Shown piece by piece: positions 1 to 61,416 of a stretch of DNA of 64,000 nt. The stretch is from a virus. Below the pieces are notes generated by a model, which saw only the letters and a list, made by a program, of their open reading frames with translations, was not told the origin of the DNA and did not search any database. Each line of letters begins with the position of its first letter. Position 1 is the stretch's first letter. Both the position numbers and the translations under genes were made by a program. The stretch lies in the IMG/VR virus record IMGVR_UViG_3300048926_000477. One strand, written 5' to 3'.

Positions 1-1
1 C

Positions 2-954: not shown

Positions 955-988
955 CATCAGCTAGCTAAATCACGAGAGAGAAGAAGCA

Positions 989-1657
989 ATGAGCGATTCC
1001 ATCGACTCCGACATCCAGGCGATCGTCGACGACGCGCAGGACAACTTCGACCTGGGCGCGCGCCTGCGCGGCACCTCCGTCCGCACCAAGGAAGTGCGCG
1101 TCTACACCGATGAGGTGACAGGCGAGAAGCTCGGCGGCGCGGAGATCGTTGAGGAGTTCAACGCCGACGGCATACGCATGCGCAAGCCGCGCTCGTGGGG
1201 TCTCACCGCGGAGCTCATCGCACTCAAGGCCGTGAAGGAGCCCTCGAAGGAGGAGCTCGAGCGCATCGAGACTCTCAAGCTCGAGATCAAGGGCCTCGCC
1301 GAGAAGCTCGAGGCAAGCTCGATCGACTTCAAGCTCCGCGCCATCCCGAAGGTCATCAAGAAGGACGCCAAGCGTGCCGCGCGCGAGCACCTCGGGATCA
1401 AGGGCAAGCTCTCCGTCGAGGACCCCCGCTTCGAGGACTTCCTCGACGAGGAGGACGCGCAGCTCTTCCACCGCACGGTCGTCAGCTTCCATGACCACCA
1501 GGACGGCCGCACGCGCCGCGGCATCACGGTCGAGAACGCGCGCGCACTGAAGGCCTACCTCCCCGACAGCGAGTACAGCCGCCTCGCTGGTGGGCTGCGG
1601 GAACTGCTCTACCAGAACGCGATCGCCGACAAGGTCACCGAGGACGCGGATTTCTAG
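989..1657 (+). CDS. tail assembly chaperone (gpG-like)
   Basis: 222 aa, acidic; lies between the major tail protein and tape measure genes; SD gagagagaag; a -1 frame continues open downstream. Confidence 0.65.
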   Translation: MSDSIDSDIQAIVDDAQDNFDLGARLRGTSVRTKEVRVYTDEVTGEKLGGAEIVEEFNADGIRMRKPRSWGLTAELIALKAVKEPSKEELERIETLKLEIKGLAEKLEASSIDFKLRAIPKVIKKDAKRAAREHLGIKGKLSVEDPRFEDFLDEEDAQLFHRTVVSFHDHQDGRTRRGITVENARALKAYLPDSEYSRLAGGLRELLYQNAIADKVTEDADF

Positions 1658-1782
1658 CGAGGTACCTGGCCAGCTCGGCCGGCGCTAGGTACCTCATCGA
1701 CATCCAGGCGGCGCTCCAGGCCGGGCAGCCGCCCACGGCCTTCATCCTCGAGCGACGCCCGCGCGCCTGGTCGCGCTGGGAC

Positions 1783-2130
1783 GTGCTGCTCGCCAAGGCC
1801 GCTGCCATCCTCGACGCCGAGCGCTGCGGCTCCTGCGGGCGCCCCAAGTATGTCTGTCAGAACGTCGACAACGACATCGCCTTCCGTGTCTACGAGGAGA
1901 CGTGTCACGCCACACGCGAACGCGTCAAGCACGAGGAGAAGAAGAAGGACGCGAAGGACCGCGCCGGCATCTCGGTCGCCGTGGAGCCGTACACGTACAG
2001 CAAGACGCCGCTCGAGGAGTTCCGCCTGCCCTTCTACGAGCGTGAAGCCGACCGCGCGCGCAAGCGCGACGCCGCCCGCCCCGTGATTCCCCGCGAAGCC
2101 CCGCCTTCTTATACCCCCGAGGACGAGTGA
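1783..2130 (+). CDS. tail assembly chaperone frameshift extension (gpT-like part of G-T; -1 frame is open from 1495)
   Basis: Frame -1 relative to the gpG-like ORF is open from 1495 to 2130 and overlaps its 3' end, the canonical G/GT arrangement; no textbook XXXYYYZ heptamer is seen. Confidence 0.45.
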   Translation: MLLAKAAAILDAERCGSCGRPKYVCQNVDNDIAFRVYEETCHATRERVKHEEKKKDAKDRAGISVAVEPYTYSKTPLEEFRLPFYEREADRARKRDAARPVIPREAPPSYTPEDE

Positions 2131-2179
2131 AACCCGCACCTAGACTCCGGCGCGCTATGCGACGACTGGGAGGTGAGCG

Positions 2180-5100
2180 ATGAGCGAAGGCGTTGAGTCC
2201 GAAGCCGTAATGCGGCTCCGCTTCATCGAAGAACTCGCCAAGTGGACGCGCGAGATCAACGAGATCCAGGAAGCGACCGGCGACTGGGGTGGAGAGCTCC
2301 GCAAGACCGAGAAGATCCTCGACTCCACCAAGTCCTCGCTCGAGGGGCTCGGCAAGGCCGCCGGCGAGACGAAGCGCGCACTGAAGGACGGGCCGTCCGC
2401 TTCCTCCAAGCAGTGGGACGACCTGGCAGAGCGAGTTGCCGCGGCCACCCAGGCCTACCGTGCCTTCCGCCAGGAGGTCGCCGTCGGCAATCAGGCCGAC
2501 ATGGGCCTCGATGACTGGATCACCACCAACGGCGGCGTCAGCCGTGCGGACCTCGAGAAGTTCCGCCGCGGCAACGCCGGCGGGCTTGTCACCGACGACA
2601 CCGCAGAACTGCGTGAGCAAGAACGCCTCATGCAGAAGCGCATCAACGACGAGATCGCGCTCACACGCGAGATTCAGCGTCGCGCCGAGGCGTCGAAGCA
2701 GGCTCGAATCGCCGAGACCAGCGGGCGCGGCTACGCCAATGCCTCCGTCCTCAGCGACGCCGGCATCAGCGCCGACCGCCAGGCTGGACTCGACTTCTCC
2801 CGCCAGCTGCAGGCGCGGCTGCGCGAGGAAGAGGAAGCCACTCGCCGCGCGCAGCAGGCGCAGCAGGACTACATCAACACGCTCCCCCGCCTGCGGTACG
2901 CGCTCTATGACGTTGCCTCCTCGGCCACGTTCACCGGCGTCGCGCTCACCGGGCTCTCTGTCGCAAGCGCGGCCGCCGCGATCTCCATGGATCGTCAGTT
3001 CGCCGATGTGGTGCGCACCTCGGGCACCTACATCGACCAGACCGGCCGGTCGACGGAGAACCTGCGCGGCCAGTTCAACGAGCTCTTCTCGACACTTCCC
3101 GCCTCCTGGTCGGAGCTCACCGAGATTGGCACTCTGGCCGGACAGCTGGATATCGCGTCGGCCGACATGGCTGAGTTCACGCGGCTGGTCACGATGTTCA
3201 CGGCCACCTCGAACGTCGGCGTCGAGGACTCTGCCACCGCGTTCGGGCGGCTGTCGCAGCTGCTCGGTGTCTCCTCGGACCAGTACGAGAACCTCGGCTC
3301 GTCGATCCTCGCTGTCGGCACGAGCAGCGTCGCGACGGAGTCGCAGATCGTCTCCACGTCCAAGGAGATCGCGTCGATGGGCGCGACCGCCGGCTTCTCC
3401 GCGGCAGACGTGTTCGGCCTCTCCGCAGCCCTCGCCTCCCTCGGCACGCAGCCCGAGCTTTCGCGCGGTGTCGTCACCCGCACCTTCACCAACATCTCCA
3501 CGGCGATCTCTGAGGGCGGTCAGCGCCTCGAGGACTTCGGCGCTCTCGCCGGCATGAGTGGACGCGAGTTCGCGCAGGCGTGGGGCAAGGATGCCGCCGG
3601 AGCCTTCACCTCTCTCATGGAGGGCCTCGGACGCCTGCAGCAGTCGGACGCCACCGCCGTCCTCCGCGAGCTGGGCATCGAGGCCAGCCGCGACGTTCCC
3701 ACCCTCCTCCGCCTCGCCCAGAACAGCGAGGTCCTCGCTCGTTCGATCGAGGTGGCCAACAAGGGCTTCGAGGACGGCACGGAGCTCCAGGACCAGTACA
3801 ACGTCATCGCGAGCACGGTCGCCGAGAAGCTCAGCGTGCTCGTCAACAATTTCCAGCTGCTCGTGGGCACCGCTGCGCAGGCCACCGGTGGACTCGGGTT
3901 CCTCGTCGACGCGCTCATCGCTGTCACCCGCGGCCTCACATCCATCATCGACAACCCGGTCGCCAGCACCCTCGCCGGCATCGGCATCGCCGTCACCGCG
4001 ATCCTCGGCGTCATGGCGCTGCTCGTCGGCGCGCTCGGTCGCGGCGCTGCCAGCTGGCTCGCCATCCGCACCGCCATGGCAGAGTACGCCGCGGCCACCG
4101 GCACCACCACGCTCTCGATCTCCGGGCTCACCGGCGCGCTCGTCGGACAGGAAGTCGCCGCCGGCCGGGCCGCGGTGGCCAGCCGGATCCTCTCGATCGC
4201 CCTGCGCAGTCTCTCCGTCATCGGCATCGCCACGGCCGCGATCCCGCTCGCCGAGTGGATGCGCAGCCTCGCGATCGCCAGCCGCGACGCCTCCGTCGAC
4301 ACGCAGAATCTCACCACCTCGCTCTCTGGCCTCAGCGGCACCGAAGCGAAGGACTCCATCGACGAGATCAACCGCGCCATCGAGCAGCTTGGCCGCTCCG
4401 CGAACATGGGCAGCGGCGCTTCGCTCATCCCGGTTGCCGGCACCTGGCTCTCCCTCGCCGAAGGCGTCGAGCAGGGCGTCACCAAGGCTGAGACGGAGCT
4501 CGACGCCGGTCTTGCCCGCCTGTCGATGAAGACGACCAACTGGTTCGCCAACGCCGGGAACTTCGGCCTGGGCGTCGTCAACGACGCGAACGGCCTGGCG
4601 CCTTGGGCGTCGAGCGTCGACCAGTCCATCGGCGAAGTGCAGAAGGTCGTCGACGCGTACGTCCAGGCCTGGAACAGCGCCGACTCCGCCACCGCGCAGC
4701 AGAAGATCCTCGACGACTACGAGCGCCTCAAGCAGGCATCGATGGACGCCGCCGTTGCTCTCGGCACCTCCGCCGAAGAGGCCGCGTCGGCATGGGACTA
4801 CAACTGGGGCGCGTTCGCAGCCGCGACCGAAGGCGGCGTCAGCGCCCTGGAGCTCGTCGGCGAGCAGGCCGAAGCCACGGCAGAGCAGGTCTCCTCCACG
4901 ATCTCTTCGTTCACGGACGTTGCCAACGCCACCATCGGCGCCGAGAATGCGATCTGGGCCCTCGGCCAGTCGCTCGGCGAGAACGGCGCCCAGTGGAGCG
5001 AGTTCTCTGAGGGTGGCCGGGCGAACATGACCGCCCTCATGGACGTGGTCAACGCCATCGCTGCCCAGACCCCCGGCGACGCGTCGGCCATCGCGAGCAA

Positions 5101-6571
5101 CCTGCAGGCGCTCTTTGAGACCATCGTGAACGGCGGCTACGCCTCAGCGCAGCAGCTCAGCATGCTCTCCGGCATCATCTCCAGCCTCGCCGGCGGCAAG
5201 GCCGTCAAGGCATCCGCCCGCGACTTCTCCTCCTTTTTCGGCGGATGGCAGACGGGGGCGGCGAACGCGGAGAAGGCGACGCAGAAGGCTGGCCGCGCAG
5301 CCTCGCGCGCCGCCGCTGAAGTGCGCACGCTTGTCGACTACGCCGGCGACCTTGGCAACGTCTTCTCCCGCTCCTTCGACATCCGCTTCGGTGGCGCAGA
5401 GGCTCTGGACACCATCACTGGCGGCTGGATGAAGGTGGCGAACGCTTCGCAGGAAGCTCGCGACAACATCGCGGAGTACCAGCGCAAGCTCGGAGAACTC
5501 GGCGCGGACAAGGCGATCAAGGAGTATTGGCTCAGCGTCGCCGAGATGTATGGCGACGAACTGCGCGCGATGAAGCTGCGCGCCGAACTCGCAGAGATCA
5601 GCGCCGACCAGGCCGCCGAGCAGAAGAAGCTCGCCAAGGAGCAGGACAAGGCGTCCATGTCCCTCGAGGGCAACAGCGAGGCCGCCCTCGCCAACCGCGC
5701 CACGATCCTCGGCATGGTCGGCAACTACCAGGACTACCTCAAGGCCCTAGCCGCCAGCGGCGTGAGCCAGGCGGAACTGCAGGCCCAGAGCGCCCAGCTC
5801 AAGCAGGAGTTCATCGCCCAGGCGACCCAGGCGGGCTTCGGCCGAGCCGAGATCGAGAAGTACGCGGCGTCCTTCGACGACATGACGTTGGCGATCAGCC
5901 GCGTGCCGCGCAACATCACGGTCAACGCGGACCCGAACCCTGCTCTTCAAGCGCTTAACGAGCTCGAGTCTCGTGCGCGGCAGGTCGCATCCTCCATGGG
6001 GAGCGCGATCGGCGGGGCGCTGTCCAAGGGCATCGACACCTCCCCGATCGACGCTGTCGCCGACAAGAGCGCCCGCCTCGCCGGGGTTATTAGCGAGCTG
6101 GCCGTGCTCCAGGCGCGCGCACTCCAGTACGGCGTCAGTGGCAATGTCATCGGGGCCACTCTGATGGCGCCACTCATCGCCGCGAAGCGCTGGCAGATCG
6201 CCACTGGAAGCTACGCCACCGGTGGTTACACCGGATCCGGCGGTAAGTACACACCCGCGGGCATCGTGCACAAGGGCGAGTTCGTCTTCTCGAAGGAGGC
6301 CACGGCCTTCTTCGGCCCGAACCTGCTCAACCGCATGCACCAGGTCGGCGTCTCCGGCGGCGGCAGCTACACGGGAGGCGGCCGCGGAGCGCAGGCAGGC
6401 TTCCCCTCCAACGGCTCCGCCGGCGGCAGCGTGGTCGACCTGTCGGCCAACTCGGCGCGACTTCTTGCAGGCCTTATCAGCCAGTCGCTCACCGTCGTCC
6501 TCCCTGGCGCACAGCTCGCCGGGTCTATCGGGGCCCACAACATCGTCAGCGCAGGAAGGGGCGCCGCCTGA
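2180..6571 (+). CDS. tape measure protein
   Basis: 1463 aa, Ala/Gly-rich, long helical segments, internal TM-like block (GIGIAVTAILGVMALLVGALG); SD gggagg; position after the G/GT pair. Confidence 0.85.
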   Translation: MSEGVESEAVMRLRFIEELAKWTREINEIQEATGDWGGELRKTEKILDSTKSSLEGLGKAAGETKRALKDGPSASSKQWDDLAERVAAATQAYRAFRQEVAVGNQADMGLDDWITTNGGVSRADLEKFRRGNAGGLVTDDTAELREQERLMQKRINDEIALTREIQRRAEASKQARIAETSGRGYANASVLSDAGISADRQAGLDFSRQLQARLREEEEATRRAQQAQQDYINTLPRLRYALYDVASSATFTGVALTGLSVASAAAAISMDRQFADVVRTSGTYIDQTGRSTENLRGQFNELFSTLPASWSELTEIGTLAGQLDIASADMAEFTRLVTMFTATSNVGVEDSATAFGRLSQLLGVSSDQYENLGSSILAVGTSSVATESQIVSTSKEIASMGATAGFSAADVFGLSAALASLGTQPELSRGVVTRTFTNISTAISEGGQRLEDFGALAGMSGREFAQAWGKDAAGAFTSLMEGLGRLQQSDATAVLRELGIEASRDVPTLLRLAQNSEVLARSIEVANKGFEDGTELQDQYNVIASTVAEKLSVLVNNFQLLVGTAAQATGGLGFLVDALIAVTRGLTSIIDNPVASTLAGIGIAVTAILGVMALLVGALGRGAASWLAIRTAMAEYAAATGTTTLSISGLTGALVGQEVAAGRAAVASRILSIALRSLSVIGIATAAIPLAEWMRSLAIASRDASVDTQNLTTSLSGLSGTEAKDSIDEINRAIEQLGRSANMGSGASLIPVAGTWLSLAEGVEQGVTKAETELDAGLARLSMKTTNWFANAGNFGLGVVNDANGLAPWASSVDQSIGEVQKVVDAYVQAWNSADSATAQQKILDDYERLKQASMDAAVALGTSAEEAASAWDYNWGAFAAATEGGVSALELVGEQAEATAEQVSSTISSFTDVANATIGAENAIWALGQSLGENGAQWSEFSEGGRANMTALMDVVNAIAAQTPGDASAIASNLQALFETIVNGGYASAQQLSMLSGIISSLAGGKAVKASARDFSSFFGGWQTGAANAEKATQKAGRAASRAAAEVRTLVDYAGDLGNVFSRSFDIRFGGAEALDTITGGWMKVANASQEARDNIAEYQRKLGELGADKAIKEYWLSVAEMYGDELRAMKLRAELAEISADQAAEQKKLAKEQDKASMSLEGNSEAALANRATILGMVGNYQDYLKALAASGVSQAELQAQSAQLKQEFIAQATQAGFGRAEIEKYAASFDDMTLAISRVPRNITVNADPNPALQALNELESRARQVASSMGSAIGGALSKGIDTSPIDAVADKSARLAGVISELAVLQARALQYGVSGNVIGATLMAPLIAAKRWQIATGSYATGGYTGSGGKYTPAGIVHKGEFVFSKEATAFFGPNLLNRMHQVGVSGGGSYTGGGRGAQAGFPSNGSAGGSVVDLSANSARLLAGLISQSLTVVLPGAQLAGSIGAHNIVSAGRGAA

Positions 6572-7437
6572 TGGCCGCGAACGTCTGGATGGGAACACGA
6601 GGATCCGAGCGCTGGCTGAAGGCCCCCGCTCCTTCTGGCGCGTTCCAGGCCACCGGATGGTCTGCCCTCAACCAGCAGCGGAACGGTCGCGTCAACGGCC
6701 GCACCTCGCGCTCGACGCACATGGTCTACAACCTGTCGTGGCCTACCGCCGACCGAGACACTGCTCGTCAGCTCAGCGACATGTACTACGGCGTGCACGG
6801 CGACGGTCTCATCCACTGGATCGACCCCACGATCGACAACCAGCTCCCCGCGCACTGGTCCTACCCCGGCCTGGGGTGCGTGGACGGTCCCGTGATCTAC
6901 GGCACCAGTCGCCCCGCGTCCGCAGTCACCGCGGCGAACCCGCATGAGCTCCCTGCGCGATCCGCCGTTTTCACCCGTCCCTTCGCCGGCTACGTCCCGC
7001 CGAGCATGTACCTTCCGATCCCGCCCGGCTACGCGGCGCACATCGGCGTGCACGGCGTCGCCAGCGCGGGCGCTCTCATCGCGCGCCCGATGAACGACAC
7101 CACGCCCGTCGGCGCCGCCGCCATCATCCCGACGCTCGCAGCATCATCCGCCACCCGCTTCAGCACTGTCGTCACTCAGACCGGGAGCGTGACCGGCATC
7201 GAGCTGCGCCTGGCTCTCGGCGAAACGGTCGGATCGACCACCCTGCCCACGAGCGCAACCATCGCAGGAATGATGGTCGAGGTTCTCCCCGTCGGCCAGA
7301 CGCCCCGATCGGGCGGCTACCGTCGCGGCGAAGGCAACTCCGGCTGCCGCATGTTCGATCCGCCCGTCGAAGCGCCGATCTCGAGCATCTACGACATGGT
7401 GAGCGTCTCCGCCGTCCTGACGGAGGTGGGCCCGTGA
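6571..7437 (+). CDS. distal tail protein (Dit-like)
   Basis: 288 aa; start overlaps the tape measure stop (ATGA); called from the conserved siphovirus tail gene order. Confidence 0.5.
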   Translation: MAANVWMGTRGSERWLKAPAPSGAFQATGWSALNQQRNGRVNGRTSRSTHMVYNLSWPTADRDTARQLSDMYYGVHGDGLIHWIDPTIDNQLPAHWSYPGLGCVDGPVIYGTSRPASAVTAANPHELPARSAVFTRPFAGYVPPSMYLPIPPGYAAHIGVHGVASAGALIARPMNDTTPVGAAAIIPTLAASSATRFSTVVTQTGSVTGIELRLALGETVGSTTLPTSATIAGMMVEVLPVGQTPRSGGYRRGEGNSGCRMFDPPVEAPISSIYDMVSVSAVLTEVGP

Positions 7438-8936
7438 CCGCCGTCGACCTCCGCATCGGCAATACCTGGCACTTCGGCTTGGCGAACTACAGCGTCGTCG
7501 GTGACTCCACCGGCACTGTCGTCGGTGACATGACCGGCGGCGCCGGCACGATGTCCGTCGATTTGCCCGAGACCGTCGACTCGAAGCTCCTCTCGGGCCG
7601 CCCGGTGCTCCTGCGCGACGCTCACATGGGCGAAACCAGCGGGATCCTGCGCACGGGCTCTGGGAACGGCGTCAACGCGACGACGACCGCGGTCTCGCGC
7701 ATCGCGCTGCTCAACGTGAACCGCACCGCCGAAGCCTTCAGCGGCACCTTGCGCGCTGCGCTGCTCTACTACTTCGGCCTCGCCGGAATCACGACCAACG
7801 TCGTCATCGAGTCCAATCTCGCGTCCCGCGCGGTGAACTTCCCCGGCTGGCAGGGCAACGTCCTCGACTACCTCAAGGACCTCTGCGTCGCGCAGCGCAT
7901 GGAGCTCAGCCTGATCGGCGAGAAGTACGTCATCCGACCGATTCGCCGCCGCACGCTCGACCTCTCGAGCGCAGCCGAGCCGTCCTGGTCCACCGACGAG
8001 TCGTCCCTCGCCCAGGCTGTCGAGGTCCTCTGGTACCAGACCAGCCCGGTCCAGAACGGACTCGTCTATCCCGCCGGCGGATGGAGCGAGGAAGTCACCC
8101 CGCTGCAGGTCGACGAAGGAGAGCTCGTCGAGATTGAGCTCTCGCTCGCCCCTGAGGATGACGAAGGCCAAGGCGTCTCCGCCGTCACTGTCCAGCAGCC
8201 GGTGTGTGTCGACAGCGTCTCGCGCACGCACGCCACCTCCTCCGTCTACACGGTCTCCGGCAAGGACGGCCTGCCCATCAAGCCGGCACAGTGGAACGCC
8301 AGCGGCGGCAAGCTCACCGTCGGGCTCAAGGACGGCGGTTCCACCCTCGTCGTCACCATCCAGGGGCCCCGGGGCGTCGAGAACGGCCCCTACTCGATCG
8401 CCATGGCGTCCGGCACCAGCGACCAGTATTCATCCCTGCGTGTGTACGGGTCGCGCATGTACTACAAGCGGAATCTGCTCACGATGCAGACCGGTCTCAG
8501 CGAAGACGTGGCGACCCAAGAGAGTGCACCCCGCGCCGAGAGCCGCTTCATCAACTCGTACGAGAACGCTTGGCGCGCAGCGTCCAACCTCCTGGCGCAG
8601 CACGGCGGCGCACAGATGAGCGTGACCGTGCAGCTCGGCGTGATTGAAGGCACGACGATCGCCCACTCCTTCTTCGGCGGCGACACCGTCAAGGAGGGGC
8701 TGAGCGAGCAGCCCTTCGGCAACGTCGAGGGCGCTCGCCTCCGACACGACGGGACCATGTTCCGCACCCGCTCGGTCACCTCGACCGCCAGCGTCAGCAC
8801 AGCGACGGCGACGCAGGACACCATCTCGCAGGATCTCGCGACCGAGTTCGGCACCCTCACCGCCTCGCAGTGGAACGCGCGCCTGCCCGCAGGCATGACC
8901 GCCTCCCAGTTCAACGCTCGACAGATGAACGGATGA
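7434..8936 (+). CDS. minor tail protein (Tal / baseplate-hub-like)
   Basis: 500 aa; 4-nt overlap with the Dit-like gene; positional call. Confidence 0.45.
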   Translation: MTAVDLRIGNTWHFGLANYSVVGDSTGTVVGDMTGGAGTMSVDLPETVDSKLLSGRPVLLRDAHMGETSGILRTGSGNGVNATTTAVSRIALLNVNRTAEAFSGTLRAALLYYFGLAGITTNVVIESNLASRAVNFPGWQGNVLDYLKDLCVAQRMELSLIGEKYVIRPIRRRTLDLSSAAEPSWSTDESSLAQAVEVLWYQTSPVQNGLVYPAGGWSEEVTPLQVDEGELVEIELSLAPEDDEGQGVSAVTVQQPVCVDSVSRTHATSSVYTVSGKDGLPIKPAQWNASGGKLTVGLKDGGSTLVVTIQGPRGVENGPYSIAMASGTSDQYSSLRVYGSRMYYKRNLLTMQTGLSEDVATQESAPRAESRFINSYENAWRAASNLLAQHGGAQMSVTVQLGVIEGTTIAHSFFGGDTVKEGLSEQPFGNVEGARLRHDGTMFRTRSVTSTASVSTATATQDTISQDLATEFGTLTASQWNARLPAGMTASQFNARQMNG

Positions 8937-11359
8937 CGATGACCCGGCCCATCTCCAACCTCCCCGACGAAGCGCAGGCCTGGCGTCGCGCGATCGAAGA
9001 GGACATCGACGCTGCACTGCGCAACGCCCGCCTCGCGAGCTCCTCGGCGAAGGCCGGCCGAAGCGCCGCCGCCGGTGCCGCCCGTGGACTCGTGGCCGCA
9101 GGACTCAGCGCGGCCGAGGCGAACGCCGCGATCGCCAACGCAGCGCGCATGCCGGCGGCGCCGGCAGACTCCACTGCCAGCTCGAGCACCTACTTCGACG
9201 AGTTCGGCCGTCCGCGCGCCACGGTGTACAGCTCGTGCAGCCCGGTCACTCTCGACACTCGAGGCCGAGACATCGACGTGGAGTATTACGAGCTGTTCGG
9301 CCGCCCCGACATCGAAGGAGAGGCCTGGCGCAAGCTCTCTGAGACCTTCCTCACCCCGCCGGAGATGAGCTTCAACCCGCTCCCGGCGGGTGACAACTGG
9401 GCCTTCAAGATGCGCGGCGTCTCCACGAGCGGGACCCCCGGCGAGTTCGGAGCAGTCATCCCGCTCCTGCTCGCCAAGGACGAGACCCCGCCACCCAAGC
9501 CCGCCGCGCCGACGCCAACCTCCCGCCTCGGTCAGATCACGCTCGGCTGGTCGGGCACGACCGCCGACGGCAACCCGCAGCCGCCGGACTTCTCGCACGC
9601 GGATGTCTACATGGCAACCACGAGCACCGGCGCCGGTGCGGTCGTCGGCCGCATGACCGGATACGACGGCGACACCTTCGTCGCGCCCGAGCAGCCCTAC
9701 GGTCAGGAGCGCTGGTTCTGGCTCGTCGCCGTCGACTACGCCGGCAACCGTTCGGTGCCGTCCGACAAGCAGACCGCCACCGCGCAGTCCGTCGTCGAGG
9801 ACGACATCGACAGCGCGATCATCGACGCCATCACGGAGTCGGTCTCGTCGAACATCGGTGGCACGGCGACATGGAGCACCGCCGCTCCTACCGCTGCGGA
9901 CGGAGTGGGCAAGGCGTCGGGCGCCATGTGGTGGCGTCGTGACGGCAACAACGACGTGATCGGCGTCTGGGAGTGGACCGGGGTTGAGTGGAGCCCACGC
10001 GCGCTCTCGAACGAGGTGATCGCGAGCCTCGACGCCGGCAAGATCAATGCAGGATTCATCGACGTGGCCCGCCTGCAGGCCAACACCATCACGGCGAGCA
10101 AGCTCCTGGTCAGCAACTTCCAGAACCTCGTCGAGGACCCCGGCATGGTGCGAGCGATCGGCGCCGCATGGACCGACGGGAACGGCCTGGCTTCGATCTA
10201 CAGCGACCCAGACGTGGACCGCCTTCTGCGCATCCTGGGTGTTGCAGGCACTGGCGTCACCGTGCGCAACTCGAACCTCTTCACGGTCAAGCCTGGCGAG
10301 ACCTACCTGGTCACCGCCCGCACCTACAACGGCGCATCCGCGGGCTCCGCCGGGTTCGGCATCATGTGGTACGACGCCAGCAACACCTACATCTCAGCCA
10401 GTCTCGTCTCGGCTCCTGCTGGCGGGGGATGGCGAGACCTTTCGGGCCGCGTCGACGCCCCCGCGAGAGCCGTCACCGGCGTCTACTGCCTGTCGACATC
10501 AGCGGCTTTCGCCGGCGGAAACGTCCACCTCTCCAAGCCCGGAGTCTTCCGAGCTGTCGACTCGGAGCTCATCGTCGACGGCGCCATCACAGCGCGCTCC
10601 ATCGCGACCGACGCTGTCACGGCGGCCAAGATCGAGGCCGGCGCCGTCACAGCCGTCAAGGTCGCTGCCAACGCGATCTCGGCCGACAAGATCCAGTCGA
10701 ACGCGGTGACCACCGACAAGATCAACGCCAACGCGGTGACGGCGACGGAGATCGCGGCCGCTGCGATCACGTCGAAGCACACGATCACCGGCGCTCTCGT
10801 GCGCACGGCGGCATCCGGCGCTCGCACCGAGATGAACAGCAGCGGCCTCCAGGTCATCAACTCCTCCGGCAACCCACTCGTTCGCCTCGGGTACGGCATC
10901 CCGACTGGCCTGCAGGTTGCTCAGCCCGATACGGGCTCCTTGGTGGCGCTGGCGCCGTTCGTCTTCGGCATGCAGAACGCCACGAGCAACACCGCCTTCA
11001 ACCTCACCTGGCCCGGATCCGACAACGTGTGGGGAGCCACGACACTCGTGACTCCCGGCCTGACGGTCACCTCGCCGACCGGCAAGTTCATGGTGATCCT
11101 GACGGTGAAGGCGGCCGAGAACTCTCGTCAGAACTACGCCGTCGCGATGGGTATGGAGTTCATGGTCGGTACCGGCATCGCCGGCACCGTCGGAAACGCC
11201 TTTGCCCAAGGCGAGTACCCCTCGCCCCACTTCGGCATCGTCCAGCTCACCCCGAACGCCAACTACACGGTGCGTCTCGGATTCACGCCGAAGCGCTTCT
11301 TTGGTGGCACGGCCCCAGCGACCGTTGCTGGATATTCCGTTGCCATCTGGCCCGTTTAG
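8933..11359 (+). CDS. tail fibre / minor tail protein with 8-residue beta-helix-type repeats
   Basis: Start ATG 8933 overlaps the upstream stop (ATGA; MTMTRP...); 808 aa; repeats of the form AVT-AAK-IEAG, AVT-AVK-VAAN and AIS-ADK-IQSN around nt 10594-10790. Confidence 0.6.
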   Translation: MTMTRPISNLPDEAQAWRRAIEEDIDAALRNARLASSSAKAGRSAAAGAARGLVAAGLSAAEANAAIANAARMPAAPADSTASSSTYFDEFGRPRATVYSSCSPVTLDTRGRDIDVEYYELFGRPDIEGEAWRKLSETFLTPPEMSFNPLPAGDNWAFKMRGVSTSGTPGEFGAVIPLLLAKDETPPPKPAAPTPTSRLGQITLGWSGTTADGNPQPPDFSHADVYMATTSTGAGAVVGRMTGYDGDTFVAPEQPYGQERWFWLVAVDYAGNRSVPSDKQTATAQSVVEDDIDSAIIDAITESVSSNIGGTATWSTAAPTAADGVGKASGAMWWRRDGNNDVIGVWEWTGVEWSPRALSNEVIASLDAGKINAGFIDVARLQANTITASKLLVSNFQNLVEDPGMVRAIGAAWTDGNGLASIYSDPDVDRLLRILGVAGTGVTVRNSNLFTVKPGETYLVTARTYNGASAGSAGFGIMWYDASNTYISASLVSAPAGGGWRDLSGRVDAPARAVTGVYCLSTSAAFAGGNVHLSKPGVFRAVDSELIVDGAITARSIATDAVTAAKIEAGAVTAVKVAANAISADKIQSNAVTTDKINANAVTATEIAAAAITSKHTITGALVRTAASGARTEMNSSGLQVINSSGNPLVRLGYGIPTGLQVAQPDTGSLVALAPFVFGMQNATSNTAFNLTWPGSDNVWGATTLVTPGLTVTSPTGKFMVILTVKAAENSRQNYAVAMGMEFMVGTGIAGTVGNAFAQGEYPSPHFGIVQLTPNANYTVRLGFTPKRFFGGTAPATVAGYSVAIWPV

Positions 11360-11393
11360 TCGCCCGAAATTGGGCTTAGACTCCGGCGGCACA

Positions 11394-11987
11394 ATGGCAA
11401 CCACTTCCCGCGGGATTCCGCTCGCTGACGGCGACACGATCGTTAACCCGATCCAGACGCCGCTCAATGCGATGGCGAATGCCCTGGACACTGCCCTCGG
11501 CAACCTCGTCACCGAGCTGGGCCCCGCGATCGGGTGGCGCCGCGCTGGCACGAACGCCGATCGACTCGCTCTCGCCGCACCGGCGCTGGCCCGTGGAGTG
11601 CAGTTCTACTGCACCGACACCGACCGCGAGTGGGAATACAGCGGCTCCGCCTGGTACTGCACGCGGATGCCGTTCACAGACCTGAGCTACGCAACTGGCT
11701 GGAGCACCGTCGCCAATGCCCCGGGGGCCTACGTCCGCATCCGAGGCGGCATCGTCACCATCGGAGGCCGAGTCAGCGGCACCGGCACCGCTGGGACCAC
11801 CATCGCGACCCTCCCCGCCGAAGCACGCCCCGCAAAGGAGCTGACCTTCCAGGTCTACGTCGACTCAGTCAGCGCATGGGGCGCCATGCGCATCGGCACC
11901 GATGGCGCCATCGCCTTCTACAGCAAGACCACCCCGCTCTCCGATGTGCGACTCGACGGAGCCCCCTCCTGGTCGGTGTCCTCGTGA
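11394..11987 (+). CDS. minor tail protein (possible receptor-binding component)
   Basis: 198 aa from ATG 11394 (MATTSRGIPLADGD); the TAGACTCCGGCGGC motif lies 11 nt upstream; the ORF-track extension from 11202 overlaps the fibre gene and is rejected. Confidence 0.45.
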   Translation: MATTSRGIPLADGDTIVNPIQTPLNAMANALDTALGNLVTELGPAIGWRRAGTNADRLALAAPALARGVQFYCTDTDREWEYSGSAWYCTRMPFTDLSYATGWSTVANAPGAYVRIRGGIVTIGGRVSGTGTAGTTIATLPAEARPAKELTFQVYVDSVSAWGAMRIGTDGAIAFYSKTTPLSDVRLDGAPSWSVSS

Positions 11988-12015
11988 GCGCTTCCCCTGA
12001 TCTGAACGGACGAGC

Positions 12016-12726: not shown

Positions 12727-12760
12727 CGCCCGCCCCACTCCTTCACGCAGAGAGACCTTC

Positions 12761-13132
12761 ATGGCCGCCGACGAGATCCCACCCTGGGTTGAGTTCGTGC
12801 TCGCCCAGGTGAGCAAGCAGTTCGACGGCGTCAACGCGCGCCTCGACAGTCTCGTCACCCGCGACGCGTTCACCGAGGAGCAGAAGCGCGTCAACGAGAA
12901 GTTCGACTCGCACGGCAGGGAAATCTCGTCGCTCAGGGCTGACCTAGCCGCTGAGGCCACGGCGCGAGCTGCAGAGCGTCTCGAGTCGGCGAACAAGGCG
13001 GCGGCGGACGCTCAGGCAAACCAGCGCACGGCCCGTCAGACCAATTGGCAATGGCTCGCTCTCATCGCGTCGCCCTTCATCGGCGGATTTGCCCTCTGGA
13101 TTCTCAACGGCGGATTGGCGGCGACTCCGTGA
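12761..13132 (+). CDS. holin-like membrane protein (coiled-coil N-terminus, single C-terminal TM)
   Basis: 123 aa; C-terminal [24 protein letters not shown] is a TM segment; adjacent to the endolysin gene. Confidence 0.4.
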
Positions 13133-13893: not shown

Positions 13894-13933
13894 CGGACGC
13901 ACACCACCCGATTTAGCTAGCAAAGGAGAGAGC

Positions 13934-51375: not shown

Positions 51376-51974
51376 CCGCCCTCGTCGTCGGCCTCGGTGG
51401 CGCGCTGCGCTCCGGCAAGGACGCCATCGCAGATCACCTCGTCGCTCGCCACGGCTTCGTGAAGAAGGGCATGAGTGACCCGCTGCTCGAGCATGCCCTG
51501 ATCCTCGATCCGTACATCCCCGTGAACGCACACCCGGCTCGGGACATGCAAGGCGCCCTCAACGGCACCTTCATCCGGCTGTCGCACCTCGTCGAGGCTG
51601 TCGGCTACGTCGAAGCCAAGACCAACCCGGAGGTGCGCCGATTCATGCAGCAGGACGGCACCGAGGGTGGGCGTGACTTCCACGACGAGAACGTCTGGGT
51701 CAACCGCGCTGCGCGCGCGATCGACGACCACCTCTACGCCGACCAGCGCGTCGTGCTGACCGGCGTCCGCTTCCCGAATGAGCTCGCCATGGTGCGCCAG
51801 TTCGCCGGGAGCACCTGGTGGGTCTCACGGCCGGGCCTAGACTCCGCCTCTTCGGCCGCGGCGCACGCCAGCGAGAACGGCGTCGATGCGGCCATGTTCG
51901 ACCACATCATCACGAACGCCGGCTCGCTGGAGGATCTCTACGCGGCCGTCGACAGACTCATGGAGACCCTGTGA
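51372..51974 (+). CDS. deoxynucleoside monophosphate kinase-like P-loop kinase
   Basis: Walker A GLGGALRSGKD; sits among nucleotide-metabolism genes. Confidence 0.55.
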   Translation: MTALVVGLGGALRSGKDAIADHLVARHGFVKKGMSDPLLEHALILDPYIPVNAHPARDMQGALNGTFIRLSHLVEAVGYVEAKTNPEVRRFMQQDGTEGGRDFHDENVWVNRAARAIDDHLYADQRVVLTGVRFPNELAMVRQFAGSTWWVSRPGLDSASSAAAHASENGVDAAMFDHIITNAGSLEDLYAAVDRLMETL

Positions 51975-52195: not shown

Positions 52196-52479
52196 CCCGC
52201 CTGCACCTCTACGTCACCACCACCTGCCCCCGCTGTCGCGCCGTCGAGCGCTGGCTCAACGATCGAGACATTCCCTTCACCGAGACCAACATGGAGGCGT
52301 TGCCGCCGGCCGAGGCCGACGCGATCCGCTCCAGTCTCGCTGCTGATGGATACACGCAGGCACCCGCCGTCTACTTCACCGACGACGAGTCGGGCGTCGC
52401 GCTCTCCTTCACCGGTTTCGATGTGACCCAGCTCGAGACTATCCATGCCCATTTAGCTAGCAGATTGAACAACTCGTGA
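52192..52479 (+). CDS. nrdH: NrdH-like glutaredoxin
   Basis: LHLYVTTTCPRCRAVERWL is the CxxC thioredoxin-fold active site; 95 aa. Confidence 0.55.
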   Translation: MTRLHLYVTTTCPRCRAVERWLNDRDIPFTETNMEALPPAEADAIRSSLAADGYTQAPAVYFTDDESGVALSFTGFDVTQLETIHAHLASRLNNS

Positions 52480-52748: not shown

Positions 52749-52828
52749 CGCGGGCGAGCAGCTCCTCCTGGACCGGAGCCTTAAGGTCGAGTTCGTGCGA
52801 GAACTCGCCCCTGACCAGGCGATCGTGT

Positions 52829-53170
52829 CTATGGCTGGATCAACTCACGTTGTCCCCCTGCTGGCTCTTTCGCGCTCCGAAGGATAGGGCAGGCCTCCGA
52901 CACGAGGTGGGCGTCCCCGTTGGCGCCCGCCTTGCATCGGTGTGTTTCGAGGAGGAAGTCGATCGCCTGTGATGCGACATCCGCCCCGATCTCCCGCCGA
53001 AACGCGTTGGCCAGGATGTTCAGGTCGAACTCATAGCTGAAGCCTCGACCCCAGATGAATGCGCTGCCGTTGCGCACTTCCACCTGAACACTCCTGCCAC
53101 CGTCGATGTCTTTCAGCACCGTCGCCATCGTCAAAGTCCCCACAATCTCGGCGCGTCCTTGTAGCGCCAC
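52829..53170 (-). CDS. hypothetical protein on the opposite strand inside the lower-GC island
   Basis: 113 aa; the only - strand gene within the + strand arm; local drop in GC. Confidence 0.35.
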   Translation of the reverse strand: MALQGRAEIVGTLTMATVLKDIDGGRSVQVEVRNGSAFIWGRGFSYEFDLNILANAFRREIGADVASQAIDFLLETHRCKAGANGDAHLVSEACPILRSAKEPAGGQRELIQP

Positions 53171-53250
53171 CTAGTTCCGAGCGTAAGCTATGTCCGAGCA
53201 CGGTATAACCGGCTTCAGACATTCGAACACAAATACGATCCGGAGCTGTC

Positions 53251-54750: not shown

Positions 54751-54779
54751 TGTCGTTGTTCGACCTAGACTCCGCCGCC

Positions 54780-55292: not shown

Positions 55293-55293
55293 C

Positions 55294-56991: not shown

Positions 56992-57039
56992 GTGGTTAGC
57001 CCCCGGTTTACCCCCGTTTCAACCCTAGACTCCGCCGCC

Positions 57040-58617: not shown

Positions 58618-58659
58618 ACCCCCCAAGGTCCGAAAATCTCGCCCCTAGACTCCGGCGCC

Positions 58660-59784
58660 ATGCCAACGGACAACTCCACCGCCGGGACCCAGCTGCGCGT
58701 TCGCGAAGCCGGGTACCGCCAGGGCACCCGCGCGGTCGTCCCCGAGGGCAACGGCCAGAAGATCAAGGTGCGCCTCATGGGCTGGGAGCCCGGCACCACG
58801 GTCGTCGAGGGCTCGAGTGCCGACTATCCGGTGGACCGCATCGTCCGCGACTTCCCCGAGTCGTTCCCCGTCGGCACGCGCATGCGCGCCAACCACGACG
58901 GCTTCTGCGAGGCCGGCGGCGACATCCGCCGCGTCATGGCCAAGACCACCTCCGATCCGTGGGAGGAGGAGGACGGGATGTACGCCTGGGCGGTCGCCCG
59001 CGAAGGCGACGCCAGCGAGTTCCTCCGCCAGTTCGCCGATGTCATCGGCACCTCCGTCTCCGTGGCCGCAGAGGTCGAGATGGAAGCAGCCGTCGACAGC
59101 AACGGCAAGCCGATCATCGACGAGAACAACCAGCCCGTCATGAAGCCGCGTCTCAGCGAGCGCGGCGCCCAGATCGTCGAGCGATTCCTCCCCATGAGCG
59201 AGTCGCCGTACAACGCCGTCGACTTCGTCGAGGCACCCGGCGCCGACGGCGCCATCGTCGCTCTCGCCACCGAGAGCGCCAAGGAGCTGGTCGAGAAGAC
59301 CATGCTCCGCGAGGCATCGAGCTTCGCAATCGATCTCGCCGGCAAGCGCGAGAAGACTTCCGCGGCAAACCGGCCCGGAACCACCCAACAGGAGGACCAC
59401 ATGGATCCGAAGGTGATCGAGGCAGCCGTTCGCAGCGTGCTCGCCGAGGCACTCGCGCCCATCAACACCTTCCTCGCGGACGAGGGCGCCCGTCGCCAGG
59501 CCGAGGCGGAAGCCCAGGCCGGTGCGGACGGAGTGAAGGAGGCCCGCGAGGCCGCCGTCACCGCAGTCGAGGCCGTCAAGGCCGCGAAGCTCCCCGAGTC
59601 CGTCGAGGTCGACCTGCTCGCGCAGCTCAAGGAGGGCGCGGACATCAGTAAGGACCTCGCCTTCGCGCAGAAGGTCCTGGAGGCCAAGACCTCCACGAGC
59701 GAGTCGACCGACTCGTTCATCACCCACGAGTCGGCCGCCGGCGACGGCGAGTCCTTCTCCCTCGGTCTCGGAGGTAGCCGCTAA
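58660..59784 (+). CDS. capsid maturation protease / scaffolding-like protein (helical Ala/Glu-rich C-terminal half)
   Basis: ATG 58660 immediately follows CTAGACTCCGGCGCC; C-terminal EAEAQAGADGVKEAREAAVTAVEAVKAAK is coiled-coil; lies between portal and capsid genes. Confidence 0.45.
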   Translation: MPTDNSTAGTQLRVREAGYRQGTRAVVPEGNGQKIKVRLMGWEPGTTVVEGSSADYPVDRIVRDFPESFPVGTRMRANHDGFCEAGGDIRRVMAKTTSDPWEEEDGMYAWAVAREGDASEFLRQFADVIGTSVSVAAEVEMEAAVDSNGKPIIDENNQPVMKPRLSERGAQIVERFLPMSESPYNAVDFVEAPGADGAIVALATESAKELVEKTMLREASSFAIDLAGKREKTSAANRPGTTQQEDHMDPKVIEAAVRSVLAEALAPINTFLADEGARRQAEAEAQAGADGVKEAREAAVTAVEAVKAAKLPESVEVDLLAQLKEGADISKDLAFAQKVLEAKTSTSESTDSFITHESAAGDGESFSLGLGGSR

Positions 59785-60245
59785 TGGCTCACGTCGCCAC
59801 CCAGGAGGTCTTCGCGCACCGCAAGGCCACCATCGTCAAGGCCCCCGCCGCCACGCCGGCGCGGACCCTGCTGCTCGATGCCGGCAAGCCGGTCGTCACG
59901 CTGACCGACACCAAGGGTGTCGCGCGGCCCGACAAGAACATCAAGGTCGGCAACCTCACCGTGAGCGGCTTCGTCGCCCCGGGTGTTGGCAACGAGGAGG
60001 CGGAGGCCGTCATCGGCGAGTTCGCCGTCGGCGCCGCACTCGACGGGACCTGGGAGTTCGAGGACATCGTCTCCTCCGGCACGACCGCCGTCCCGACGAC
60101 CACGCCGCAGCGCACGCCGGTCTTCCTGACCAGCGCCGGCGCCCTGACGCTCGCCGCGTCGGGCAACACCCGAGTCGGCGTCGTCGACTACCCCGCCAGC
60201 TACGTCAAGGTCGCGGGCACCCTGCCTGTCGCGATCGGAGAGTAA
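59784..60245 (+). CDS. head protein (decoration / scaffold-associated), unknown
   Basis: 153 aa, beta-rich; ATGA overlap with the upstream gene. Confidence 0.35.
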   Translation: MAHVATQEVFAHRKATIVKAPAATPARTLLLDAGKPVVTLTDTKGVARPDKNIKVGNLTVSGFVAPGVGNEEAEAVIGEFAVGAALDGTWEFEDIVSSGTTAVPTTTPQRTPVFLTSAGALTLAASGNTRVGVVDYPASYVKVAGTLPVAIGE

Positions 60246-60248
60246 GAG

Positions 60249-61403
60249 ATGCAGATCAAGGAAGAGTTCACGCTCGACAACCGCCTGTCGCCGGCGAAGT
60301 TCGGCGTCACCAAGGAGAAGGCGCGTTACGTCAAGAGCCTCTACGAGAAGGCTCGCAACGGCTCCCGCGCCGCCGAGGGCCAGCTGGTGGAGCTCTTCAC
60401 GTCCTCGGACGCGGCGCACACCATCGCGCACCTCATCAACATCGACACCATCCCGCAGCTTCCCGAGGAGCTGAAGGACCTGGAGACCTTCGCGCCCGTG
60501 CGCAAGACGAAGGACTTCAATCCGGTCTACCTGCTGTCGCTCATCGGCGCGGCGGGTGTCGAGGGTGCCGGTGTCGACAAGAACGGCGCCGCCTCGATCG
60601 TGCCCGAGGGTACTCGCTACCCGTACGTCACGGTCAAGAGCGACCAGGAAGCCTTCTACTCGAAGCTCGCCAAGCGCGGTGTCGCCTTCGGGTGGACCTT
60701 CGAGGCGTGGATCAACGACCTGGTCGGCCAGATCGAGGCCATGCCGCAGGAGCTCCTGGCCCTGACCAAGGCCACCGCGTACGCGGAGGTCTGGGAGGCA
60801 CTGCTCAACGCGAACGTCGAGCTGAAGTCGGTCACCCTGCCCGACGGCACCACGACCACGCCGAACGCGCCGGTCTCGGCCAATGCGCTCATCGCGGCAT
60901 CCGTGGAGCTGAGCCTCCGCGAGATCAACGGTCGCAAGATCGGCGACAAGAACGACTTCATCGTGCACGTCCCGACGGGCCGGAAGAAGTTCCTCGAGTA
61001 CGACATCGCCCAGTTCGGCCGGATCAAGGAGATCCACGAGCAGGACGGATCGGTCACGAAGGTCCTGGCGCCGGACACGGCGATCCAGTCGCTCTTCCCG
61101 AAGATCGAGATCAAGGAGACCGACTTCCTGACCGGCACGCAGTGGAAGCTGCAGCCGCGTCCGGGAACGACCAACGGTCGCCCCGTCCTCGAGCGCCTGT
61201 CGCTCCGTGGCTACGAGAACCCCGAGCTGCGCTACCGCAACGACCAGGGCGTGGCTCTGGGCGGCGGCCAGATCGGCCCGTTCCAGGGCGGCTTCGACAC
61301 CGACACCGCCGAGATGCGCTACCGGTACATCACCGGCGGCGTGCTCTGGGACCCGACCTGGATCGTCTCGTCCAAGGGCGACGGCTCGGCCGCAGCTGGC
61401 TGA
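60249..61403 (+). CDS. major capsid protein
   Basis: 384 aa; position; followed by a hairpin terminator. Confidence 0.6.
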   Translation: MQIKEEFTLDNRLSPAKFGVTKEKARYVKSLYEKARNGSRAAEGQLVELFTSSDAAHTIAHLINIDTIPQLPEELKDLETFAPVRKTKDFNPVYLLSLIGAAGVEGAGVDKNGAASIVPEGTRYPYVTVKSDQEAFYSKLAKRGVAFGWTFEAWINDLVGQIEAMPQELLALTKATAYAEVWEALLNANVELKSVTLPDGTTTTPNAPVSANALIAASVELSLREINGRKIGDKNDFIVHVPTGRKKFLEYDIAQFGRIKEIHEQDGSVTKVLAPDTAIQSLFPKIEIKETDFLTGTQWKLQPRPGTTNGRPVLERLSLRGYENPELRYRNDQGVALGGGQIGPFQGGFDTDTAEMRYRYITGGVLWDPTWIVSSKGDGSAAAG

Positions 61404-61416
61404 TAGCTAGCTAATC

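Follow-up and report, generated by a model that had tools for sequence, protein, structure and literature searches.

IMG/VR virus record IMGVR_UViG_3300048926_000477 is represented here by a stretch of 64,000 nt (the window, in what follows, is this whole stretch). Its GC content is 67%, and by our own codon-usage gene calls the phage genes are tightly packed in three arms. The first arm (positions 1–15526, plus strand) has tail tube, tape measure, tail and lysis genes. The second (positions 15857–41447, minus strand) includes PrimPol, AAA_24, SNF2 helicase and a WhiB-like gene, and the third (positions 41693–64000, plus strand) has small early genes, nucleotide metabolism genes, a DndB-like gene, and the terminase, portal and capsid genes. 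A 12-base palindrome, TTA[G/T]CTAG[C/A]TAA (consensus TTAKCTAGMTAA), is present at 19 sites in the window with two or fewer mismatches, about one site per 3.4 kb, and is found in all three arms and across every operon. The properties of this palindrome point to an operator, probably read by a dimeric regulator of the phage.

The sites start at positions 957, 13913, 15541, 21646, 23633, 24820, 30834, 35209, 39076, 39134, 40409, 41002, 41476, 42195, 42227, 45803, 49279, 52453 and 61403, and these numbers serve as names for the copies. An earlier inspection of the letters (the sequence-only reading) had listed 16 copies. All of these are present, 1–3 nt from where they had been placed; two in-gene near-copies, 30834 and 35209, had been missed. 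The density had been judged unlikely to arise by chance, and a shuffled-genome count bears this out: either perfect core at two or fewer mismatches gives 17 and 12 matches, as against 0.05–0.07 expected from dinucleotide-preserving shuffles, and none of 100 shuffles reached the observed count. The cores had also been described as perfect palindromes. This holds for three copies only, 24820 (TTAGCTAGCTAA), 39134 and 42227 (both TTATCTAGATAA). Six copies are G/A hybrids (TTAGCTAGATAA), exact at 23633 and 41476 and including one-mismatch copies elsewhere, and the remaining copies have one to two mismatches. In four copies (21646, 30834, 35209 and 42195) the central CTAG is changed to CTGG/CCAG.

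An alignment of the 15 good copies shows positions 3 and 5–8 to be invariant and positions 1, 2 and 10–12 to be conserved at 80%–93%. At position 4 there is G or T, and at position 9 C or A. There is no flank conservation beyond ±1 nt in these copies, thus the 12-mer is the whole element. The tetranucleotide CTAG is rare in the window, with 36 occurrences compared to about 195 predicted from base composition, and over half of the 36 fall in the palindrome or in a second motif (C(C/T)TAGACT(C/T)CGsCGsc) that is described below. A site centred on CTAG therefore has few accidental look-alikes. A literature search for the exact 12-mers yielded unrelated matches only.

Fifteen of the 19 sites lie mostly in the intergenic 6.7% of the window (binomial p ~8e-15), which agrees with the placement in intergenic gaps described in the sequence-only reading. 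Two further sites, 49279 and 52453, straddle gene junctions. The same reading had the copies abutting start codons. Copies 42227, 45803 and 49279 do so; the ATG at 42239, which abuts copy 42227, falls however within a predicted promoter, and the related phage R, introduced below, lacks a counterpart to it.

The palindrome could in principle act as a DNA site or as an RNA hairpin. If a hairpin were required, positions 4 and 9 would have to co-vary. No co-variation is seen: G/A hybrids make up 6 of the 15 sites, compared to 7.2 expected under independent assortment of positions 4 and 9, and at orthologous sites of the window and R the two positions (G/T and C/A) interchange freely. The motif region folds at −2.9 kcal/mol (z = 0.6), no better than shuffles. 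The weak fold and the absence of compensatory changes argue against an intrinsic terminator or RNA hairpin. As the half-sites vary independently and there is no fold, the data fit an element consisting of two half-sites, read independently on duplex DNA, which is the signature of a dimeric binding protein. An orientation of the motif relative to transcription was not detected, and a palindrome as such has none. The six G/A hybrids (23633, 40409, 41002, 41476, 45803 and 49279) all read TTAGCTAGATAA on the plus strand of the window (two-sided p ~0.03); local genes are on either strand, and the asymmetry follows the genome strand and not transcription.

Conservation was assessed in one relative, IMGVR_UViG_3300042934_000727 (termed R), of which ~61 kb of ~70 kb were pieced together and compared (full genome accession JAQZBG010000002.1), and in the short fragments L001, L003 and L005. 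R is 100% identical over an 11.9 kb overlap to a contig binned in a Microbacterium metagenome-assembled genome. Genes common to R and the window show 65%–78% nt identity, and many genes have been replaced. The motif is present at 12 orthologous places in R, with 90% identity in the motif as against 44% in the 60-nt flanks. Two of these copies, 40409 and 41002, are retained with about 8 nt of flank though the neighbouring genes are non-homologous. They belong to the leftward early operon (positions 40395–41447), which has genes of 143, 174, 71 and 63 aa in the window, as against 220, 77, 92 and 114 aa in R (L012 5200–6970). The junction copies of the motif and the final small basic gene (39610–39753) are conserved, and the other genes are entirely different. 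Here gene cassettes have clearly been replaced, with the repeats as their boundaries.

Beyond R, the place of copy 61403 has a degenerate copy (ATAGCCAGCTAA) in L003, and a fragment with 71% terminase identity has a degenerate motif copy past its capsid gene. The motif is absent in ~21 kb around the capsid gene of each of two Microbacterium prophages (59% capsid identity), in the first 50 kb of the lytic Clavibacter phage CN1A and in Hyperion, a Cluster EG phage of which the right 27 kb were examined. When L009 and L010, two relatives that lack the motif, were searched de novo for repeats (~21 kb each), no alternative motif emerged; the same script recovered the known Cluster EG repeat in Hyperion (GGTTGATCA...). 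On this comparison the element is under selection and specific to one lineage.

The lineage is temperate. Contigs of 100% identity prolong the window in both directions. To the right there is a 92-aa reverse gene, then a tRNA-derived core that is common to the start of the second contig (L005). The gene order of L005 is a tyrosine integrase, an excisionase-like gene, a small operon ending in an HTH_3 protein, and head-tail connector genes that lead to window position 1. The attachment (att) core resembles a tRNA 3′ end and lies just right of window position 64000 (L007 11700–11774 and L005 33–61, common to the ends of both contigs). It is flanked by GCTACAC repeats that resemble integrase arm sites. 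The tyrosine integrase and the excisionase-like gene are at L005 208–1476, with a motif copy between them. It is this integrase, together with the tRNA-derived core at the ends of L007 and L005, that marks the element as temperate. The window is thus part of an integrating prophage that extends beyond it by ~0.5 kb on the right and ~6 kb on the left, and it represents ~64 kb of a ~70.6-kb temperate phage or prophage.

Among GenBank phages there is no nucleotide match to the 38–46 kb region of the window, and the nearest terminase is that of Clavibacter phage CN1A (44.6% aa identity). Microbacterium is the source of all three capsid relatives from genome collections. Metagenome scans with the P_R first-gene family and the SNF2 helicase, and several viral-contig scans using early proteins, found no relatives. 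There is a record of a contig of 0.2–1 Mb whose capsid and tail-tube proteins are identical to those of the window.

The motif overlaps five predicted promoters in both phages. The first of these is the rightward early promoter, P_R (positions 42224–42252, plus strand). It has a −35 element TTGTTA (42224–42229) and a −10 element TAATCT (42247–42252) with a 17-nt spacer, and the spacer holds the perfect copy TTATCTAGATAA at 42227–42238. R has TTAGCTAGCTAA at the same place, in a promoter that reads TTGTTA-17-TAACCT. A degenerate copy, TTAGCCAGCAAA at 42195–42206, is situated 32 bp (three helical turns) upstream of the 42227 copy. The ATG at 42239 (gene 42239–42619) sits between the predicted −35 and −10 of P_R. 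The R homologue of this gene (L012 7650–8128) shows no ATG, GTG or TTG near its conserved N-terminal region; the start of the gene may be non-canonical in both phages.

A comparable arrangement is found on the minus strand, downstream of the WhiB-like gene, where the perfect copy TTAGCTAGCTAA at 24820–24831 lies within a predicted promoter (positions 24807–24836; −35 TTGAAT at 24836–24831, −10 TATCGT at 24812–24807) whose 18-nt spacer holds the motif. R has an identical copy in the same promoter layout, TTGATT-18-TACCTT. Just upstream of the −35 of this promoter there is, in both phages, an element of about 25 nt, CAAATTAAGCGGnnCTCGCA (24837–24865, minus strand). In R the element is also found ahead of P_R (L012 7605–7634), and it may be either a promoter cassette that was duplicated or another binding site.

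At the leftward early promoter, P_L (predicted core 41445–41459, minus strand), the motif copy TTAGCTAGATAA (41476–41487) occupies the −35 position and ends 16 nt upstream of the −10 element TAGACT (41459–41454), which is followed after 6 nt by the ATG at 41447. R has TTATCTAGATAA in the same layout: motif, 15 nt, TATCAT, 6 nt, ATG. Since the ATG is only 6 nt past the −10 and has no Shine-Dalgarno sequence, a leaderless mRNA is predicted.

The fourth example is the leftward promoter predicted past an origin-like iteron region (positions 39100–39129, minus strand), with −35 TTGACT (39129–39124), an 18-nt spacer and −10 TAGGGT (39105–39100). The perfect copy TTATCTAGATAA at 39134–39145 is 4 nt upstream of the −35, and R displays the motif, 5 nt, TTGACA, 18 nt and TACGCT. 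A second copy, TTATCTAGATGA at 39076–39087, is located at about +7 to +18 from the predicted start; at this place in R the motif is absent. The sequence-only reading had two copies bracketing a promoter, and copies 39134 and 39076 do flank TTGACT-18-TAGGGT. In the fifth example, copy TTAGCTAGATAA at 23633–23644, between a nuclease-like gene and the AAA_24 gene, is 8 nt upstream on the minus strand of a −10-like TACACT (23619–23624). R has kept an identical copy together with TACACT; its assignment as a −10 element is a weak inference. Outside the window, one copy is between the integrase gene and xis and one is 18 nt upstream of the TAGACT of a head-tail connector promoter, at the −35 place. 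Both are retained in R.

The copies take many positions relative to the predicted −10 elements, between about −46 and about +12. Counted from the end of the motif, the nearest TAnnnT is 7–8 nt, 15–18 nt or ~28 nt away, or there is none, and the distance to a start ranges from −4 to more than 100 nt. The sequence-only reading had offered, as an alternative, a conserved promoter element. This is not supported as such, as no flank is conserved and the distance to a partner hexamer and to the start is not fixed. The variable spacing and the unconserved flanks likewise speak against a sigma-70 −35 or −10 element as the motif itself.

The remaining copies have no recognisable promoter and fall into three groups. 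Copies 957, 13913, 40409 and 41002 are directly before Shine-Dalgarno sequences. Copy TCAGCTAGCTAA at 957–968 is 6 nt past a terminator-like hairpin and 20 nt ahead of the start at 989; its orthologue in R is TTTGCTAGCTAA. Copy TTAGCTAGCAAA (13913–13924) is 9 nt ahead of the GTG at 13934, with the Shine-Dalgarno sequence GGAGAG directly after it, and R has a degenerate copy only at this place. The sequence TTAGCTAGATAC is present twice, at 40409–40420 in the gap ahead of the 71-aa gene (13 nt to its ATG) and at 41002–41013 in a 31-nt gap ahead of the 174-aa gene. In R the former is identical and the latter is CTAGCTAGATAC, each between non-homologous genes.

A second group is on stop/start junctions. 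The last 2 nt of TTAGCTAGATAT (45803–45814) overlap the ATG at 45813, and TTAGCTAGATGA (49279–49290) overlaps the ATG at 49287 as well as the stop codon of the preceding gene; the orthologous junction in R is GTAGCTAGCTAA-ATG. Copy TTAGCTAGCAGA (52453–52464) is 11 nt ahead of the GTG at 52476. The third group, beside strong hairpins, consists of 957 and two others. One of these is a further copy of TCAGCTAGCTAA (15541–15552), in the loop of a strong hairpin (−32.3 kcal/mol, z = −4.0) at the convergent junction of the plus and minus arms, with a motif orthologue in R. The other is ATAGCTAGCTAA (61403–61414), which shares its first base with the end of the major capsid stop codon and has a strong terminator hairpin (−36.5 kcal/mol, z = −4.4) 5 nt further on. 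The motif copy is identical in R.

Three variants with a changed centre complete the set. TTAGCTGGATAT (21646–21657, CTGG centre) is between the tRNA-Asn gene and the PrimPol gene, and is retained as a variant in R (TTAGCTGGATGA). The tRNA-Asn (GTT) gene itself (21662–21737, minus strand) belongs to the replication arm, and 4 nt separate its 3′ end from the CTGG variant, an arrangement also kept in R. The near-copies TTAGCCAGATAA at 30834–30845 and 35209–35220 are within genes. Both read TTATCTGGCTAA on the minus strand, in the same frame, and encode YLAK and YLAN, i.e. Tyr-Leu-Ala-(Lys/Asn), with T-ending codons that are rare in the genome. As they have no counterparts in R, a function of these two copies is doubtful.

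The sequence-only reading had proposed a genome-wide operator or stoperator site for one DNA-binding protein. It is the best-supported reading in so far as the site is concerned and is thus partly supported; the binders that had been named are not. The support consists of a palindrome with independent half-sites and no RNA fold of its own, its intergenic enrichment, its selective conservation at orthologous places, the overlap with conserved predicted promoters, its lineage specificity and the precedent of phage phiC31. We infer, from the sequence, the promoters, the protein binding, repression over activation, the roadblock and the phage origin of the binder. The motif would be a double-stranded DNA operator with TTA(G/T)CT half-sites, most likely read by the lysogeny repressor of the phage and serving also as a roadblock; a probability of about 0.6 is assigned to this.

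The proposed process is as follows. A dimeric, sequence-specific regulator would read the 12-bp palindrome as two TTA(G/T)CT half-sites. It would most likely be the repressor that maintains lysogeny in this Microbacterium-type siphophage, which is temperate, ~70 kb in size and integrates at a tRNA. Bound protein would exclude RNA polymerase from five or more promoters, where the site overlaps or abuts predicted core elements. Such promoters would include the leftward and rightward early promoters, the one past the origin-like region and that of the recombination genes, and, outside the window, those of the xis operon and the head-tail connector. At the other copies, between cistrons or beside intrinsic terminators in every transcription unit, bound protein may form a roadblock to read-through. 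The roadblock step is modelled on the understood action of the phiC31 conserved inverted repeats and the Cluster A stoperators. An occupancy that ranges from about −46 to about +12, and that extends to the inside of operons, fits a repressor and roadblock; neither a fixed promoter element nor a classical activator would account for it.

Several points weigh against this proposal. The 12 bp in total, with an invariant CTAG centre, would be short for a classical helix-turn-helix (HTH) dimer, and the centre of copy 39134, near −46, is at a place where activators bind as well. Promoters were assigned by eye, from the conserved non-coding regions of both phages side by side, and an E. coli-type promoter/terminator scanner, which is ill-suited to a high-GC genome, gave nothing above shuffles. 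The genes are those of our own codon-usage calls. The conservation evidence is a single comparison, between only two independent motif-bearing genomes. Further, Pfam and PHROG scans of the ~90 window proteins found no Cro/CI-type repressor gene in the window. The sole clear Xre-type HTH protein, the 69-aa HTH_3 protein (L005 3825–4034, just outside the window), has no homologue in R. Two conserved proteins with HTH-like segments, at 18589–18984 and 25446–~25900, are in replication-type operons and have no repressor-like context. None of the candidates can be singled out as the binder.

The same scans did give some DNA-binding-type matches. Within the window these are a weak winged HTH (the 63-aa protein), a NikA-like ribbon-helix-helix (RHH) protein (17239–17406), WhiB (24868–25158) and a weak recombinase-like HTH (25446–26009); outside it they are the 69-aa HTH_3 protein and the excisionase-like protein. 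The 63-aa and 71-aa basic HTH proteins had been named as binders. They have no homologue in the ~61 kb of R, which carries the identical motif, and on this ground they are not supported. The RHH protein, also named, has a positional analogue only in R, and the DNA-reading beta-strand differs (VLINIEV vs HRLHIAL). Other proteins are shared by both phages. The 131-aa protein at 18589–18984 has two HTH-like segments and is 73% identical in R, with a nearly identical second helix; its homologue adjoins the primase of the lytic phage CMP1. The recombinase-like double-HTH protein (~140 aa, 25446–~25900) is 38% identical, the WhiB-like protein (24868–25158) shows 53% identity, and the basic 47-aa protein (39610–39753) is conserved. 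A 99-aa gene (52829–53128, minus strand) is reverse-oriented in the rightward arm, in an otherwise empty gap of ~500 nt (52749–53250). It is conserved in R (65 aa; core LKDxDGxRSVQ...FIWGxGFSYEFD); Pfam, PHROG and PDB gave no match for it. The divergent upstream region between this gene and the DndB-like gene is conserved and has no motif copy. The 99-aa gene may be one that is expressed in the lysogen. PDB sequence searches with five candidates gave nothing useful. The DndB-like protein is unlikely as the binder, as it is conserved at 48%–49% in prophages without the motif.

That the two phages share an identical operator set and share no detectable Cro/CI-, Xre- or RHH-type repressor could mean a regulator of a kind not yet recognised, either a conserved protein of no known family or a host factor; the operator copies at the ends of the interchangeable early-gene cassettes may in addition double as module-exchange junctions. 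This is unlikely; the 99-aa gene, the 47-aa protein (39610–39753) and the two-HTH proteins at 18589–18984 and 25446–25900 would be the candidates. A slightly less probable proposal is that a transcription factor of the host, Microbacterium, has been recruited by the phage and that expression follows a host signal. It would account for the lack of a conserved phage repressor candidate and for the early-operon genes that differ between the phages beside sites that are the same, and both motif-bearing phages are linked to Microbacterium. The motif is, however, missing from the other Microbacterium prophages and phages examined, and a density of about one site per 3.4 kb over every operon is typical of phage-encoded systems such as that of phiC31.

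The positions of some copies would also suit a phage activator or timing factor that turns on middle genes, the motif substituting for the −35. P_L and the connector promoter have the motif at the −35 place, 15–18 nt upstream of a TAGACT/TATCAT −10, and copy 39134, centred near −46, is beside a −35. Yet P_R and the promoter at 24820 have a TTG-type −35 of their own, with the motif in the spacer, 39076 is downstream of the predicted start, and many copies have no nearby −10 and are right before a Shine-Dalgarno sequence or beside terminators. The elements of the 39.1-kb promoter are near-consensus and should need no activation, and late genes have a separate conserved promoter-like motif. An activator is thus rather improbable. 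An RNA or translation element, such as an AU-rich intercistronic processing site or an all-frame stop insulator, is more improbable still. Many copies are 0–36 nt before starts and overlap upstream stops, the motif forms an AU-rich island within a 67% GC transcriptome, and TTAGCTAGCTAA has stops in three frames on both strands; TTATCTAGATAA, on the other hand, has stops in two frames only. Copies are also found upstream of a −35 (39134), between divergent promoters (41476) and past the last gene of converging arms (15541), positions that are not transcribed or belong to promoters. The dyad symmetry, which an RNA site does not need, is kept; the RNA does not fold, and the orientation to transcription that would be expected is not seen. 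A recombination linker or selfish short repeat that marks module boundaries and has no regulatory role is hardly credible. It agrees with the leftward early operon, where different genes are joined by the same motif and ~8 nt of flank at cassette junctions. Against this, 12 bp are too short for efficient homologous exchange, the precise promoter placement and the strict palindrome are left unexplained, and conservation in collinear, highly conserved modules (23633, 24820) needs no exchange. The motif at cassette junctions is more likely a by-product of conserved regulatory sites.

Two other repeated elements were noted in the window. The sequence-only reading had noted a CCGTAT flank shared with an iteron region. 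This is borne out: CCGTATNT is present 7 times, with 1.8 expected, and three occurrences abut motif sites and four are in the 39.2–39.4 kb region. The hexamer abuts copies at 24814, 40415 and 41008, and the sharing with the iterons is limited to the 6-nt flank. The region at 39200–39410 is AT-rich, with at least four CCGTAT(T/G)T repeats and a 65-nt imperfect inverted repeat (arms 39251–39315 and 39340–39404), and resembles a replication origin with iterons. The palindrome itself does not qualify as a replication iteron: its copies are dispersed over the whole window, and the clustered CCGTAT repeats are a different element.

The second motif, C(C/T)TAGACT(C/T)CGsCGsc, is found on the plus strand at 2139–2154, 11375–11390, 15193–15208, 51836–51851, 54764–54779, 57024–57039 and 58644–58659, and also in L001, L002, L003, L005 and R. 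At three or fewer mismatches there are 12 matches, as against 3.4 expected. Five copies have an ATG 0–4 nt further on; at 15193 the leader is longer and has a Shine-Dalgarno sequence, and the copy at 51836 is within a gene. Four copies have aCCCCCG ~21 nt upstream. The motif stands ahead of the small terminase, the portal, the gene at 58660 and the tape-measure region, and may represent a late-promoter class of its own (a TAGACT −10 with leaderless or short-leader mRNAs) or a start-associated sequence (SAS). With respect to the integrase-proximal operon, R has a cytosine-5 DNA methyltransferase-like gene (L002 18478–19272), recognised by eye from FCCQGG and PPCQGY; the phage in the window has unrelated genes at this place.

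Dispersed repeats of several kinds have been described in actinophages. Conserved short motifs directly upstream of starts are the SAS and extended start-associated sequences (ESAS) of Cluster K mycobacteriophages and Cluster EF Microbacterium phages (PMC7302621). The SAS are asymmetric and coincide with the ribosome-binding site, unlike the palindrome, which precedes the Shine-Dalgarno sequence where one is present and is also found far from starts. The second motif (CCTAGACTCCGsCGCC-ATG) is closer to an SAS than the palindrome is. Inverted repeats of 18 bp in Cluster EG Microbacterium phages and of 17 bp in Cluster O mycobacteriophages are present in 8–10 copies, 14–22 bp upstream of starts; no function has been assigned to them, and they are conserved even where the flanking genes differ (PMC7302621). 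They resemble the palindrome in being short inverted repeats in short intergenic gaps, and differ in sequence, in that their phages are lytic, and in their restriction to one genome end and to one strand.

The stoperators of Cluster A mycobacteriophages (L5, Bxb1) and Cluster CA Rhodococcus phages are ~20–35 copies of one short site, spread over the genome, that are intergenic or overlap gene termini. One of them is at the same time the operator of the early lytic promoter, and the consensus differs between immunity groups (PMC13313380, PMC6550527, PMC9283540). The palindrome is similar in its many copies in short gaps and at gene termini and in having one at a predicted early lytic promoter, and its lineage specificity is comparable to a consensus that differs by immunity group. 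Stoperators, however, are 13–14 bp long, asymmetric, bound by a monomeric two-domain repressor and oriented to transcription (PMC9283540, PMC13313380), whereas the motif described here is a 12-bp palindrome whose flanks add no asymmetry and which shows no detectable orientation to transcription. Among the ~90 window proteins no Pfam match suggests a repressor of the L5 gp71 or Bxb1 gp69 type; this is a result of the Pfam scan, and no direct comparison was made. In a 2020 survey of 116 Microbacterium phages, three were possibly temperate and none had a repressor gene (PMC7302621).

The closest likeness is to the temperate Streptomyces phage phiC31 (NC_001978). Its genome has at least 15 perfect copies of (C)TACTCACGTGAGTA(G), with the consensus CTACTCACGTGAGTAG. 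They are found after the terminase, major head, tape-measure and tail-fibre genes, 8–25 nt ahead of starts, and both ahead of the repressor gene c and within it. These conserved inverted repeats (CIRs) reportedly bind the c repressor. Both phages are temperate high-GC actinophages with 15–19 perfect or near-perfect palindromes in short intergenic gaps of the early and late regions, i.e. after stop codons, 8–25 nt before starts, beside terminators and at early promoters. The differences are that the CIRs are 16–17 bp long and unrelated in sequence to the 12-bp motif, that the host family is another one, and that the phage in the window has three gene arms and a tyrosine integrase (serine in phiC31). 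A tblastn search with the phiC31 c protein gave no match at E <= 1 in the window, R, L005 or L007.

The palindrome thus belongs to neither the phiC31 CIR family nor the Cluster A stoperator family; it would act like either, by a principle already established, and no concept is changed by the finding. Temperate Microbacterium phages are barely described, and the window would provide a map of the likely immunity operators and predicted early promoters of a new 70-kb temperate lineage. Such an operator map makes the repressor experimentally findable, and the sequence, short, highly specific and centred on the rare CTAG, could find use as a regulatory part in Microbacteriaceae genetics. The motif may represent the second palindromic case, after phiC31, of a high-GC actinophage that silences its prophage by dozens of dispersed operators.

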